From Candidatus Micrarchaeia archaeon (GTDB lineage Archaea; Micrarchaeota; Micrarchaeia; CABMEP01), in assembly GCA_038881595.1 (NCBI GenBank), contig JAVZPM010000002.1, forward strand, positions 59,254-123,253: a stretch of 64,000 bases of DNA, given 5' to 3'. Each line of letters opens with the position of its first letter. Position 1 is the first letter of the stretch. The notes beneath the pieces are model-generated. The model was not told the origin of the DNA and ran no database searches. It saw nothing but the letters and a program-made list of their open reading frames with translations. Position numbers and translations under genes: made by a program. Positions 12,988 to 63,324 of this stretch are shown one piece after another.

Positions 12988-15180
12988 TTAGTCCATAAAG
13001 TCCTTTGCTGTTGGAGGTTCTTTAGGTTCCCCTTTTCTTTCACGGACTTTGGTTACTAATTCGTTCTGCAGTGAAGTTGGAACGAGCTCGTATCCTGCAT
13101 ATTCATGATACCAGATTGCTCTTCCCTGTGATGCAGATCTTAAATCATTGGACATTCCAAATGTCTCTGATACTGGCAGCTTTGCCTTAACAGTGGATAA
13201 GTCTCCTTCCTGTCCAATCTCAAGTATTTCACCACGTCTTCCCTGCAATGCAGTTATTATGTTTCCTGCATATTCCTGTGGTGATTGTACAAGGAATATT
13301 TGCTTAGGTTCCATGAGCCTTACTCCAGAGGTAAGCATGCTTGCATAGATAGGTCTTTTTATTGCAGGCATAATTTGTGCAGGACCTCTGTGTGCAGGAT
13401 CTTCGTGAATTATTGCATCTGTTAACAATACCTTCACACCAACAACCTTTTCTTTTGCAAGAGGTCCCTTATCTACTGCTTCCTCGAATGCCTTGAGCAC
13501 TAATTCCATAATTTCCTGCATGTACTGTACTCCTTTCGTTGCATCCACAAGCACGCATCTGTTCTTTATGTCTAGGACCTTCTTTGCCTGATCTCTTTCC
13601 ATTCCTGCCTCTACAAGCGCATCAACAATAGCCTTTCCTTTAGGTCTTCCCTCAGGAATCTTTCCTTCTACTATTGCATTGTAAACTCCTTCTTCAAGAG
13701 GTTCAACTTTTATCTTGAATTTGTTGTGTTTATTAGGTGATTTTCCTTCAAGTTCAGGCCCTGGTTTGAGTATTGTTTCTCTGTAAACCACGATTGGTGG
13801 TGATGTTTCTATTTCCACTCCTTTCTCCTTTGAAATTTTGTATTCTACAATCTCAAGATGCAGTTCACCCATACCACTTATAAGGTGCTCACCGGTTTCC
13901 TGGTTGATCTCTACTTTAAGGGTTGGGTCTTCTTTTGACATCTGTCTTAGAACTTCAATTAACTTGACAAGATCTTTTGTGTTCTTTGCTTCTATAGACT
14001 TTGTAACTACAGGTTCAGAGTAGTGTTTTATCTGTTCGAATGGTTCAAAGTTCGGATTTTCACTTATTGTTTCTCCAACATAAAGATCTCTCAATCCCAC
14101 TATCGCAGCAATGTTTCCTGCCGGCACTTCTTCTGCAGGGATTCTGTCTGGACCCATGTAAATTCCTACTTGTTGAACCTTTGCTGAAGTGTGTTTTGAT
14201 GCAACAGTTAATTCTGTACCTTTTCTTACTGTTCCGCTGAATATTCTTGCAACTCCTACTTCTCCAGCATGCTTGTCTACAACCACACCGAATATAATTC
14301 CACATACCTTTGCATTAGGGTCAGTATTTAACATTGCCTTTCCATCTTCTGTGTTTAAATCACCGTGCCACAAGATTGGAATTCTATATACTTGTGCCTC
14401 TTGTGGGTTTGGAAGATGTTGGATTACCATTGTAAGAACGACCTCATCTATTGGTGCCTTTTCAACCAATGTTTTGTGATCATTTTTAGTACACAACTCA
14501 TATATATCTGTAAATTTAACTCCCTTTGACTTCATATATGCAAACGATGTAGCCCACTTATTGAAAGCAGATCCGAAAGCAATGTTTCCTTTTTCTACAT
14601 TTATCTTCCATTCATCTTTCTTGTCTGCAGGTGCATATTTGTCTATTAGCTTGTTTATATCTGTAATCAGTTTGACTAGTCTTTCTTGAGTCTGCTGTGG
14701 TGTGTATTTTAACTCATTGATTAATCTATCAATCTTATTAATGAATACTGTTGGCTTTGATTTTTCCTTTAAAGCCTGTCTTAATACCGTTTCGGTTTGA
14801 GGCATAATACCTTCAACTGCGTCTACTACTAAAATAATTCCATCTACCGCTCTCATTGCTCTTGTAACATGACCTCCGAAGTCTACGTGTCCTGGAGTGT
14901 CAATAAGATTGATGACATATGGCTCTCCGTTATACTCAAAACCGAGAGAGATGTTTGCAGATTTAATTGTAATTCCTCTCTTCTGTTCAAGTTCCTCAAA
15001 GTCCATGACTCTCTGTTCTCCTGCAAGCTCTTTGCTAATCAAGCCTGCCCTTGCTACTAGAGAATCTGCTAGTGTTGACTTACCATGATCTACGTGTGCC
15101 ACTATAGCAATGTTTCTCACATACTTTAGATTTTTCATAATTTTCTGTACTTCTTCTACAACTAATTCTTTTCTTACCAT
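12988..15180 (-). CDS. fusA: Translation elongation factor 2 (aEF-2)
   Basis: G domain AHVDHGKSTL, DTPGHVDF, 730 aa; conserved position downstream of S7. Confidence 0.95.
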   Translation of the reverse strand: MVRKELVVEEVQKIMKNLKYVRNIAIVAHVDHGKSTLADSLVARAGLISKELAGEQRVMDFEELEQKRGITIKSANISLGFEYNGEPYVINLIDTPGHVDFGGHVTRAMRAVDGIILVVDAVEGIMPQTETVLRQALKEKSKPTVFINKIDRLINELKYTPQQTQERLVKLITDINKLIDKYAPADKKDEWKINVEKGNIAFGSAFNKWATSFAYMKSKGVKFTDIYELCTKNDHKTLVEKAPIDEVVLTMVIQHLPNPQEAQVYRIPILWHGDLNTEDGKAMLNTDPNAKVCGIIFGVVVDKHAGEVGVARIFSGTVRKGTELTVASKHTSAKVQQVGIYMGPDRIPAEEVPAGNIAAIVGLRDLYVGETISENPNFEPFEQIKHYSEPVVTKSIEAKNTKDLVKLIEVLRQMSKEDPTLKVEINQETGEHLISGMGELHLEIVEYKISKEKGVEIETSPPIVVYRETILKPGPELEGKSPNKHNKFKIKVEPLEEGVYNAIVEGKIPEGRPKGKAIVDALVEAGMERDQAKKVLDIKNRCVLVDATKGVQYMQEIMELVLKAFEEAVDKGPLAKEKVVGVKVLLTDAIIHEDPAHRGPAQIMPAIKRPIYASMLTSGVRLMEPKQIFLVQSPQEYAGNIITALQGRRGEILEIGQEGDLSTVKAKLPVSETFGMSNDLRSASQGRAIWYHEYAGYELVPTSLQNELVTKVRERKGEPKEPPTAKDFMD

Positions 15181-36306: not shown

Positions 36307-36486
36307 GGGCCAGTAGCTCAGAGGTAGAGCGCTTCGTTCGCATAAACTTTCTTAGAAAGAGAGTTTGATCAAGGAATTTTCTAAGAAACTCTTTATCAAA
36401 TAGTTTCATCAAAATAAGTGATTGAACTTTCCTAACATGAAAGTAGTAAAGTTTCGGAAAACGAAGAGGTCGCGAGTTCGAATCTC
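36307..36486 (+). tRNA. tRNA-Ala (anticodon CGC) with an approximately 108-nt intron at the canonical 37/38 position
   Basis: Exon 1 36307-36342 (GGGCCAG...CTTCG TTCGCA), exon 2 36451-36486 (A CGAAG...CTGGTCC A); G3:U70 Ala identity pair; T-loop TTCGAAT. Confidence 0.8.
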
Positions 36487-36528
36487 GCCTGGTCCATAAT
36501 TAGTATATAATCAATTAGAGAGGTTAAC

Positions 36529-40668: not shown

Positions 40669-41730
40669 TTAACCAATTATTTCAATGTCACCATATATTG
40701 GTGATTCTACTTTTTGCTCTTCAAGTGGTACTCCAACAACACTTGCACCCTTTACTCCAGTTACGATTGCAACTATTTCTATCTTGCCATCATATCCTGG
40801 AATGAGTCTTGCACCCCACTTGACGCTTGCCGTTGAATCCATTCTTTCAGTTATTATTTCTCCTGCCTTGATTGCATCTCCTAATGTCAGGTCGTTTCCA
40901 CCAGAGATGTGGATCAAAGCACCTTTTGCTCCTTCGAAGTCAACATCAAGCAATCTGTTCTTTAGAACTCCTTCTGCAGCTGCCTGAACCTTGTTTGTTC
41001 CTCTTCCTTCACCTACCGCAATGAAACCAACATCACCTTGAGACATAATTGCTCTTACATCTGCAAAGTCAATGTTGATTAATGAAGGTTGTGTTATCGT
41101 CCAGACAAGTCCACCAATTGCTCTTGCAAGTATCTCATCTGCAACTCCAAAAGCCTCATTCATTGGGAGATTTGGAACCAATTGAACCAGTCTGTTGTTG
41201 TCAATTATAATAACACTGTCTGCATGTTTTCTAAGCATCTGAATTCCTTCGTCTGCTTTGCTTCTTCTTGCCTTTTCAAGTGCGAATGGGTAGGTAACCA
41301 TAGCAACTACTATTGCACCTTGTTCTTTTGCAATTTCTGCAACAACAGGAGCACTTCCTGTACCTGTACCTCCTCCCATACCTGCACAGATAAAAACTAA
41401 TTGTGCATCTTTTAGTGCTCTTTCGATTAAAGGCTTGTCAATTTCTGCAGCCTTTCTCCCTACATCAACATATCCTCCAGCACCAAGACCTCTTGTTATA
41501 GATTTACCTATAAGAATCTTTTGAATCCTTTCATCTAATGTCAATAAGTGCTGATTATCTGTATTAATTGCAATCAGATCAGCACCCTTAACACCATATC
41601 TAAGAAGTCTCTGAAGGGTGTTGTTTCCTCCACCACCGCAGCCCACGACTGCGATCTTAATTCTTTCAACTGGACCAAGATTTGACTCAGCCTCAGTGTG
41701 TCCTGTAACAGATTTGATTAAGCTTTCCAT
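40669..41730 (-). CDS. ftsZ: Cell division GTPase FtsZ (paralog B)
   Basis: [25 protein letters not shown]; second FtsZ directly upstream of the first. Confidence 0.95.
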
Positions 41731-45676: not shown

Positions 45677-45787
45677 GGCCGCAGAGGGGAATCGAACCCC
45701 TGCTTGGAGGTTTCTGCATTTTTGATGAAACTTTCTTTTAGAAAGTTTCTCCACAGCCTCCCGTCCTACCATTAGACGACCGCGGCC
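45677..45787 (-). tRNA. tRNA-His (anticodon GUG) with an encoded G-1 and an approximately 38-nt intron in the anticodon loop
   Basis: Reverse complement: G-1 + GCCGCGG acceptor, anticodon stem GGAGG/CCTCC, loop CTGTGG|intron|A, T-arm AGGGG TTCGATT CCCCT, discriminator C. Confidence 0.75.
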
Positions 45788-60106: not shown

Positions 60107-60213
60107 GCCCCTGTAGCTCAGCTTGGATAGAGCGACTGTCAGACTTAACTTGTTGTTTTGTCTGGTCGAACCTCCTAAGCAGTAGGTCGAGGGTTCAAAT
60201 CCCTCCGGGGGCG
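60107..60213 (+). tRNA. tRNA, probably Arg (anticodon CCU), with a 32-nt intron at a non-canonical position (32/33)
   Basis: Acceptor GCCCCTG/CGGGGGC, D-arm GCTC...GAGC, anticodon stem ACTGT/GCAGT, T-arm GAGGG TTCAAAT CCCTC; a canonical loop (CTCCTAA) forms only if 60141-60172 is spliced out. Confidence 0.6.
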
Positions 60214-60612: not shown

Positions 60613-61305
60613 ATGAATAAAAAAGAAAAAAGATCCAAACACGATTTGCTTCAGATATTTCCAGGCATATTCAAAATAGACGACAAGTTAGCTACTCTTA
60701 ATGCCTACCCTGGAAATACAGTTTATGGTGAGCGATTAATAGATGTAGAAGATAAAGAATATAGATTATGGGATCCATTCAGATCAAAGCTTGCAGGAGC
60801 AATAAAAAAAGGTCTTAAATCGAGCGGGATAAAGAAAGGAGATTCCGTGCTTTATCTTGGAGCTGCAAGCGGAACAACTTGTTCTCATATTTCAGATATC
60901 ATAGGAAAGAATGGCATTATTTACTGTGTTGAGTTTTCAGAGAGGCCTTTGAGAGATCTTATCTCAGTCTGCGAAATAAGAGACAACATGATTCCGATAT
61001 TGGGTGATGCACGAAAACCTCAAGAATATAAGAAGTATATTGAAAGTAAGGTAGATTTCATATATCAAGATGTTGCACAGCCAGATCAGATAAGAATATT
61101 CAAGCTTAACTCTGACATGTTTTTGAAGGAAGGTGGAGAAGGATTCATATGCATAAAGTCTCAATCAATTGATGTCACAAAGGCATCAAAAGAAGTATAT
61201 AAGGAATCATTAAAAGAACTTAAAGATTATGGTTTTACGATTTTACAGGTGATTGAGCTTTCCCCTTATGATTTAAATCATCTTTTTGTTCATGTTAAAA
61301 AATAA
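60613..61305 (+). CDS. flpA: Fibrillarin-like rRNA/tRNA 2'-O-methyltransferase
   Basis: SAM-binding LYLGAASGTTCSHISDI and a conserved fibrillarin C-terminal region. Confidence 0.9.
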   Translation: MNKKEKRSKHDLLQIFPGIFKIDDKLATLNAYPGNTVYGERLIDVEDKEYRLWDPFRSKLAGAIKKGLKSSGIKKGDSVLYLGAASGTTCSHISDIIGKNGIIYCVEFSERPLRDLISVCEIRDNMIPILGDARKPQEYKKYIESKVDFIYQDVAQPDQIRIFKLNSDMFLKEGGEGFICIKSQSIDVTKASKEVYKESLKELKDYGFTILQVIELSPYDLNHLFVHVKK

Positions 61306-63115: not shown

Positions 63116-63129
63116 CTTGAAAAAAATGC

Positions 63130-63239
63130 GCTTGGGTGGTGTAGAACCTTGTTGCGCAGGTTCTGCGCACATGGTGCACAGTGGTCTAGCATTGCGGCCT
63201 GTCACGCCGCCGACCCGGGTTCGAATCCCGGCCCAGGCG
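63130..63239 (+). tRNA. tRNA-Asp (anticodon GUC) with an approximately 37-nt intron in the D-loop
   Basis: Exon 1 GCTTGGGTGGTGTAG, exon 2 TGGTCTAGCAT T GCGGC CTGTCAC GCCGC...CCGGG TTCGAAT CCCGG CCCAGGC G; the mature 73-nt cloverleaf requires removing 63145-63181. Confidence 0.65.
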
Positions 63240-63324
63240 CTTTTATATTCATTTTTATATTCTTATTTTTATAAATAAGAATAATTAAATTTAAGAATAA
63301 CTAAATTAAGTCATTTTCATTAAC

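Follow-up and report, generated by a model that had tools for sequence, protein, structure and literature searches.

Two tRNA genes, tRNA-Ala(CGC) and tRNA-His(GTG), in a 64,000-nucleotide stretch of a Candidatus Micrarchaeia archaeon genome (hereafter the window, meaning the whole stretch of DNA that was analysed) carry introns that share a cassette of about 30 bases, a hairpin followed by a short tail. Related cassettes appear to be widespread in the tRNA introns of DPANN archaea, and the family is apparently undescribed. The explanation we favour, with moderate confidence in it as a whole, is that each is an ordinary 37/38 intron of the protein-spliced, bulge-helix-bulge (BHB) kind, that selection maintains the pairing of the hairpin, and that the likeness of the two introns reflects copying of the cassette between tRNA genes, by duplication or transposition, and not chance. 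Conservation of the cassette suggests that the introns have been copied between genes or are recognised by a dedicated factor.

The two genes and their parts, in window positions, are as follows.

36307-36496, plus strand: tRNA-Ala(CGC); Rfam tRNA model, 52.5 bits
36307..36342, plus strand: tRNA-Ala 5' exon, positions 1-37, with anticodon stem CTTCG and loop TTCGCA
36343..36460, plus strand: tRNA-Ala intron, 118 nt, at 37/38; cloverleaf reading
36461..36496, plus strand: tRNA-Ala 3' exon; Rfam tRNA model
45677-45786/7, minus strand: tRNA-His(GTG); Rfam tRNA model, 49.3 bits
45751..45787, minus strand: tRNA-His 5' exon, including the encoded G-1
45712..45750, minus strand: tRNA-His intron, 39 nt, at 37/38; cloverleaf reading
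45677..45711, minus strand: tRNA-His 3' exon; Rfam tRNA model

Each gene matches the Rfam tRNA model over its whole length, interrupted by one insertion after the anticodon, and removal of the insert restores a canonical cloverleaf in both; both genes are also found by ARAGORN in intron mode. An earlier note, made from the sequence of this DNA, ended the tRNA-Ala gene at 36486 and gave its intron as about 108 nt; the Rfam end lies 10 nt further on and the cloverleaf reading gives 118 nt, with a run of A leaving the boundary uncertain by 1-3 nt. The location of tRNA-His at 45677-45787 on the opposite strand stands, its intron measuring 39 nt where about 38 had been stated. That note was also right that the tRNA-Ala intron is long and contains internal inverted repeats, which fold into a rod-like structure, but the length is not exceptional: predicted introns at related loci reach about 100-190 nt.

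The similarity of the two introns had been noticed as two shared blocks, and both are present where they were reported: AAACTTTCT at 36344-36352 on the plus strand and 45740-45748 on the minus strand, and AGTTTCATCAAAA at 36402-36414 (plus) and 45720-45732 (minus). Counted across the window, whose GC content is 31-36%, neither is remarkable, the 9-mer AAACTTTCT having 4 matches against 2.7 expected and the 13-mer AGTTTCATCAAAA, with at most one mismatch, 2 against 0.8 (20 of 100 shuffles reach 2). Shuffling gives a different answer when the introns are compared with each other. Of 5000 dinucleotide shuffles, 8 yield a shared substring of at least 13, and 2 reach the score of 34 obtained when Ala intron positions 2-30 are locally aligned with positions 3-29 of the His intron. 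The aligned stretches begin at nearly the same distance from the 5' splice site; this best alignment uses the first 30 nt of the Ala intron, while the exact 13-mer belongs to a second, reiterated unit. Within the window the Ala/His similarity is thus only moderately significant (p about 1e-3), and the decisive evidence comes from outside it.

We searched metagenomes with the pattern AACTTT-N5-13-AAAGTTYMATC-N20-50-GTTCRAWTC, the last part of which is the T-arm motif. At least 120 contigs matched, and nearly all of those listed are archaeal-type tRNA genes. Among the 120 matches listed, 90 parse as canonical 37/38 introns of 30-61 nt. Once spliced in silico, 66 of these 90 were recovered by ARAGORN, with 26 anticodons and at least 15 isotypes; these isotype counts are approximate, as the automatic anticodon register was off by one in some cases (Glu read as Ser). 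A covariance model, R1, built from the metagenomic copies only and without window sequence, has two matches at E<0.01 in the 64-kb window, at 45719-45749 (minus) and 36385-36415 (plus), one in each intron. Specificity was examined in the window together with 80 Micrarchaeota loci chosen through FtsZ and not through the cassette (1.35 Mb), where the model gives 10 hits with E<0.05, every one of them within a tRNA intron. A search of 9 kb of contig beyond the window found no further cassette-bearing tRNAs. The common origin, mobility or shared element that the earlier note had proposed for the two introns is supported by this distribution over more than 100 other tRNA introns, by orthologous loci and by covariation in the hairpin.

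In the metagenomic copies, the cassette consists of a 10-bp hairpin, [K]AAACUUUY-loop-RAAAGUUU[M], in which K-M is U-A or G-C, followed by AUCAAAA. It starts 1-3 nt past the 5' splice site, that is, past anticodon-loop position 37. Paired bases fill 99.1% of hairpin cells, and the loop varies in both sequence and length, from 3 to more than 13 nt. Pair counts were taken from an equal-length subset (alignment A3) and a model-based alignment (A4), a mixed-length MAFFT alignment (A2) being excluded on account of its mis-registered 5' arm. The search pattern left the base before AAAC free, and the closing pair in 83 distinct sequences is U-A in 43, G-C in 31 and another pairing in 9. Compensatory change is seen at 5 of 9 stem pairs; none of 500 shuffles reaches the observed score, which collapses in slid registers. 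The AAAA after ATC is 93-97% conserved, though absent from the search pattern. At the other end of the intron, the 4-mer ahead of the last two bases can pair with tRNA positions 32-35: of 81 introns, 42 show 4/4 pairing and a further 25 show 3/4, against 4/4 pairing in 4 of 81 when partners are shuffled. The commonest 3' bulge is AA-A (the hyphen marking the splice site), and a distal AAGUUU arm stands beside the pairing 4-mer in about one fifth of the metagenomic introns, by a by-eye estimate. Permissive Rfam scans of both window intron regions gave no family match to the cassette, only the tRNA model and chance-level hits.

These pairings allow both window introns to be read as variations on the same module, with the following parts.

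36343..36374, plus strand: Ala unit 1, partly decayed, T-AAACTTTCT-t-AGAAAGAGAGTTT-GATCAAGG; aligns with the His intron and with intact orthologue cassettes
36385..36415, plus strand: Ala unit 2, stem eroded and tail intact, holding AGTTTCATCAAAA; model R1, 31.7 bits, E=0.009
36424..36444, plus strand: Ala unit 3, tail-less hairpin GAACTTTC-ctaacat-GAAAGT; from the fold, conserved in locus L005
36448..36460, plus strand: Ala distal region (arm, CGGA, AA); strict hBHBh' fold
45749-45727, minus strand: His hairpin G-AAACTTTCT-aaa-AGAAAGTTT-C, one complete cassette; model R1, 38 bits, E=5e-4 at 45719-45749
45726-45719, minus strand: His tail ATCAAAAA
45717-45714, minus strand: His GCAG, which pairs with loop CTGT (32-35) and is followed by the AA bulge

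Lying 1-3 nt past the 5' cut, the hairpin forms the helix that borders the 5' bulge within the intron. In the minimal, one-unit form, represented by the tRNA-His intron, the tail would provide an extra strand opposite the 5' bulge; downstream, four bases would pair with loop positions 32-35, and two more would form the 3' bulge together with nucleotide 38. The tRNA-Ala intron appears to have grown by tandem reiteration into three units at different stages of decay, and its length would have arisen because the module was reiterated. Its distal AAAGUUU arm and first AAACUUU would close a strict hBHBh' motif: helix h' is formed by AAAGTTT (36448-36454) and AAACTTT (36344-36350), the partner of loop positions 32-35 (TTCG) is CGGA (36455-36458), and AA (36459-36460) and A38 make up the 3' bulge. 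The complete set is h CTTCG/CGAAG, H TTCG/CGGA, bulges CA-T and AA-A, and h' AAACTTT/AAAGTTT; the strict fold has a predicted energy of -25.5 kcal/mol against a minimum free energy of -29.2. The same closing architecture occurs in L003, L007, L009 and L025. BHB fold prediction at the junctions thus yields a strict hBHBh' motif for Ala, and for His a strict 3' half, with a proper 3' bulge (AA-A), and a relaxed 5' half, in which a 3-nt 5' bulge faces a 9-nt strand. Cleavage would be carried out by the broad-specificity splicing endonuclease of the lineage, of epsilon2 type in Micrarchaeum relatives (PMC3239211), and ligation presumably by RtcB.

An adjacent protein assigns the window to contigs of the metagenome-assembled genomes GCA_038873915.1 and GCA_038881055.1. 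Orthologous loci were recovered through the neighbouring FtsZ genes, and all are titled Candidatus Micrarchaeia or Micrarchaeota (DPANN, including relatives of ARMAN-2). Intron length in the syntenic tRNA-Ala(CGC) genes falls from 118 nt in L005, where the sequence has diverged, through 105 (L003), 81 (L009), 63 (L007) and 52 nt (L291) to 49 nt in L025. The 37/38 intron of this gene is found in the Micrarchaeum clade and in L025, and the gene is intron-less in L008, L023, L027 and many more distant genomes. Orthologues of the tRNA-His intron in L003, L005 and L206 measure 39-41 nt. Introns of both orthologous sets start with a common segment of about 33 nt in which 17 columns are invariant across Ala and His. 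Unit 1 is intact in L003, L005, L007 and L291, and the window copy differs by four changes, giving GAGAGTTTGATCAAGG. The range of 49-118 nt in the Ala intron is attributed to gain or loss of units. In L003, FtsZ is 100% identical to that of the window in its best segment, yet the intron of its tRNA-Ala gene (14569-14747, minus strand) has 105 nt against 118 and a largely different middle, so the interior of the Ala intron changes far more rapidly than the genes around it, with unit 1 and the closing arm retained.

Introns also differ in position among orthologues. The tRNA-Ala(CGC) gene of L021 (12285-12408) has a D-loop intron of different sequence, and that of L025 (5929-6050) a cassette intron at 37/38. 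Orthologues of tRNA-Val(GAC) in distant Micrarchaeota carry a GC-clamped variant of the cassette, CGCTTTTTAG[GT]AAAAAGC..GGCAAAAAC, at these places.

L049, 3361-3487: tRNA-Val(GAC) variant in the D-loop
L053, 4374-4549: tRNA-Val(GAC) variant at 37/38
L043, 2315-2578: tRNA-Val(GAC) variant at 37/38

The positional differences in tRNA-Val and tRNA-Ala suggest intron relocation. Among the metagenome matches listed, the cassette likewise occurs in D-loop introns (L225, L240, L271) and in a T-loop intron (L238). Two cassettes lie within one tRNA in L193, L275 and L286, and the long introns of L009, L053 and L241 have an antisense cassette at their 3' end. Copies also stand directly past the tRNA 3' end (L241, L182, L293), in a tRNA 5' leader (L235) and, rarely, between genes (L207, L210, L238); intergenic copies are few in 0.64 Mb of pattern-selected loci.

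Two further arrangements were observed at these loci. In L210 (about 1870-1960) a tandem TGTCTCTAATCAAAAA array lies just past a cassette-like element that follows a stop codon; here the tail motif AATCAAAAA has been reiterated on its own. In L241 (about 1390-1440 and 2535-2600) and L182 (about 1400-1440 and 1520-1565), a tRNA 3'-end fragment together with the cassette recurs as a direct repeat at a distance of about 0.1-1.1 kb on the downstream side of the intact tRNA, an arrangement that resembles the att repeats of a tRNA-integrated element.

Contigs that host the cassette range from 25 to 60% GC, and the cassette itself has 10-30% GC. The nearest named relatives of uL2 on L218 (57% GC) are Micrarchaeota, at 65-67% identity, and those of an AMP phosphorylase on L183 (30% GC) are Nanoarchaeota/Woesearchaeota, at 52-54% identity. 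On this evidence at least two DPANN phyla seem to carry the cassette, a tentative assignment from one protein per contig on two contigs.

Presence and absence among orthologues, differences in position, tandem and inverted reiteration, and a shared rare variant all point to copying between genes. That variant is the stem CUUUC/GAAAG, found in both the Ala and the His cassettes of the window, L003 and L005. Stem types agree within a contig in 8 of 10 pairs, compared with about 40% expected, a rough hand estimate from family frequencies. The closing pair differs between the two tRNAs in a compensatory way, being U-A or U·G in Ala and G-C in His. Recent gene conversion between the two introns of the window was rejected, since orthologues cluster by tRNA and not by genome.

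Several points weigh against the explanation we favour. A cassette resembles its orthologues more closely than the Ala and His copies of a single genome resemble each other; the Ala and His introns have therefore not exchanged sequence recently. Near-identity over contigs of 25-60% GC, and apparently over two phyla, is hard to explain by old copying alone; such identity across genomes requires continuing spread or sequence-specific selection. Decaying copies exist, as in Ala unit 1 of the window and in the L299 orthologue of the L218 tRNA-Ile intron, where the stem is shortened and the tail changed between genomes 87% identical in uL2; the cassette sequence is thus not indispensable. Alignment A4, used for the covariation, was fitted to the model, and a metagenome sample chosen by pattern exaggerates uniformity. 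The splice sites, and splicing itself, are deduced from sequence, and the mechanism of copying and the reason why stem and tail sequence have been kept are likewise a matter of inference.

The strongest competing explanation, which we rate as possible yet rather unlikely, is that the cassette is maintained mainly as a sequence read by a trans-acting factor, its likeness in different tRNAs reflecting function and not copying. It would then act as a processing or recognition handle in removable parts of the pre-tRNA, and the factor could be the DPANN splicing endonuclease with its lineage-specific L3 or L2 loop, a ligase, a pre-tRNA chaperone or a modification enzyme. Conservation of stem and tail sequence, beyond what pairing demands, across hosts of such different GC content and apparently two phyla fits this proposal, as do a loop free to vary in sequence and length, in the manner of a protein-bound hairpin, and a fixed placement with respect to the 5' cut, whether the intron is canonical or non-canonical. 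The copies past tRNA 3' ends and in one 5' leader also lie in removable pre-tRNA parts, and a special L3 loop is common to DPANN endonucleases and associated with heavy tRNA disruption (PMC5829648). However, many tRNAs of the same genomes have no intron or an unrelated one: in the window, the introns of tRNA-Arg, tRNA-Tyr and tRNA-Asp are unrelated to the cassette and tRNA-Gln is intron-less, and in the selected metagenome loci 32 of 47 neighbouring tRNAs have no predicted intron. Decayed copies moreover persist in apparently intact genes, and we identified no candidate protein.

Less plausibly, indeed improbably in our view, the element might act on DNA or in transcription, as a palindromic operator, an att core or a terminator hairpin, and be tolerated in tRNA genes as splicing removes it. 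A palindrome with symmetric variation is compatible with such a role, as are T4-T5 runs in the 5' arm, the copies right after tRNA 3' ends and in the att-like duplicated 3'-end repeats of L241 and L182, and the position of a giant-virus look-alike (described below) at a median of 19 nt past stop codons. Against this, a loop or spacer of 3 to more than 13 nt and a variable stem length are more in keeping with an RNA hairpin than with a dimer-binding site. In loci chosen without regard to the cassette, it occurs in tRNA introns only, with no intergenic copies; the window copies (CTTTCT) have no T run, and a terminator within a gene would be harmful. An internal promoter, with AAAGTTTAATCA as a BRE/TATA-like element, was also considered and rejected: archaeal spacing would require it to lie further from the 3' exon or, in L235, from the tRNA 5' end. 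The regions upstream of the window tRNAs have ordinary TTTATA/TTTAAA boxes.

The cassette pattern also matches 95 contigs in IMG/VR. A near-identical element, AAACTTTTT-ARA-AAAAAGTTTAATCAAAAA, is frequent in the AT-rich contigs L083-L177 of that set (for example L090 3846-3904, L150 7771-7860, L101 9143-9280 and L177 12666-12693). A profile search with nhmmer gave 121 hits at E<0.01 in 0.82 Mb, 115 of them intergenic and none in predicted tRNAs, in both orientations, sometimes in tandem, and at a median of 19 nt past a co-oriented stop codon. At least some of these contigs are from giant viruses, L177 encoding major capsid proteins of nucleocytoplasmic large DNA viruses (NCLDV). The viral element is probably a 3'-end or terminator hairpin and may be only a look-alike favoured by the search pattern. 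With copies that are intergenic, free of orientation bias and without tRNA overlap, it was not accepted as a source of the cassette and is treated here as a look-alike.

It is highly unlikely that the excised and probably circularised intron serves as a functional small RNA, the hairpin and tail forming a scaffold and the variable segment a guide. The architecture of constant and variable parts and the strong conservation would suit this, and the window encodes fibrillarin, so guide ribonucleoproteins exist in the organism. Yet the sense strand of neither intron has a C (RUGAUGA) or D (CUGA) box, and Rfam matches to small nucleolar RNAs are antisense only, with E about 1 or more and far under gathering scores. 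The BHB requirement fully explains the variable segment, and here too decayed copies exist. Finally, chance or convergence of A/T-rich, hairpin-forming introns in a genome of 32% GC can be dismissed: neither block is over-represented alone across the window and shuffled A/T-rich introns already share 7-8-mers on average, but it is refuted by the shuffles of intron against intron (p about 4e-4 to 2e-3), by retention of the cassette in orthologues and in more than 100 metagenomic tRNA introns, whose contigs reach 60% GC, and by a window-free model, R1, that picks exactly the tRNA-Ala and tRNA-His introns.

The closest precedent for copying of the cassette between tRNA genes is the transposed tRNA-intron families of Thermoproteales (Fujishima et al. 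2010, Mol Biol Evol 27:2233; PMC4090602). As summarised in PMC4090602, similar introns there occur in different isoacceptor tRNAs, related genomes differ in presence or absence, and the hosts' endonucleases accept relaxed BHB motifs. The cassette resembles these families in occurring at different tRNA positions and in being present in some orthologues and absent from others. It differs from them in its host, which belongs to DPANN and not to Crenarchaeota, and in form: one short cassette is nearly unchanged over diverse genomes, in place of the many genome-specific clusters described in that text, and it is modular, found in tandem and inverted within one intron and also in a 3' trailer and a 5' leader. 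Similarity confined to one genome or its close relatives, as expected of recent events, is not what the cassette displays. Candidatus Micrarchaeum acidiphilum ARMAN-2, of the same lineage as the window, is reported to have 56% of its tRNA genes disrupted (PMC3239211), with many introns, including ones at non-canonical positions such as 59/60, and its epsilon2 endonuclease cleaves strict and relaxed BHB motifs in vitro (PMC3239211, PMC3488258). In the parts of those two papers available to us, intron positions and the enzyme are covered, and conserved intron sequence is not.

Other comparisons are more distant. No description of the cassette sequence or of a conserved DPANN intron motif was found in the literature searched, and a sequence search returned unrelated primer matches only. 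The euryarchaeal pre-tRNA-Trp intron houses a box C/D guide RNA at 37/38. The cassette is likewise a conserved module inside a 37/38 tRNA intron, but it has no C/D boxes, K-turn or Rfam match, and it occurs in nearly all isoacceptors and not in Trp only. REP/PATE hairpin repeats are IS200/IS605-related elements with a short conserved hairpin, dispersed intergenic copies and an HUH (TnpA/RAYT) transposase. They share with the cassette a conserved hairpin with a single-stranded flank containing TCAA (TTGAT on the other strand), and occurrence in both orientations and in tandem. The cassette has one hairpin, not two distinct ends, and its distribution, with hits in tRNA introns only over the 1.35 Mb searched and few intergenic copies in the 0.64 Mb of pattern-selected loci, speaks against placing it among these repeats.

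The window has six tRNA genes by the Rfam tRNA model. Default ARAGORN finds one of the six, the intron-less tRNA-Gln, and intron mode finds all six with several wrong anticodons (Ala as Leu, His as Tyr); the default misses show how such genomes can appear to lack tRNAs. The remaining features of interest are listed here.

60107-60213, plus strand: tRNA-Arg(CCT), with an insert of about 32 nt apparently just 5' of the anticodon loop
63004-63115, plus strand: tRNA-Tyr(GTA), with an intron of about 38 nt
about 63127-63240, plus strand: tRNA-Asp(GTC), with a non-canonical insert of about 30-35 nt in the D-arm region; Rfam model positions 8-63 only, 31.3 bits
39511-40605 and 40669-41730, minus strand: two adjacent FtsZ paralogues
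60613-61305, plus strand: fibrillarin gene

We offer one further possibility, as a speculation: the cassette may be the sequence-specific handle of an active BHB-intron insertion or copying system, or of a dedicated pre-tRNA-binding factor. Transposition has been inferred for the gain of archaeal tRNA introns from similar introns in Thermoproteales, and we know of no cis-element or machinery for it. If the cassette is the handle of a mobile system, the introns would be a genuine mobile element moving horizontally among DPANN lineages, and the transposition long postulated for archaeal tRNA introns would for the first time have a concrete cis-element, the cassette. A model of the cassette would also flag disrupted tRNA genes in DPANN metagenome-assembled genomes, which often seem short of a full tRNA set. 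Short, sharply defined and present in the introns of most tRNA species, the cassette offers a concrete handle for experiments.

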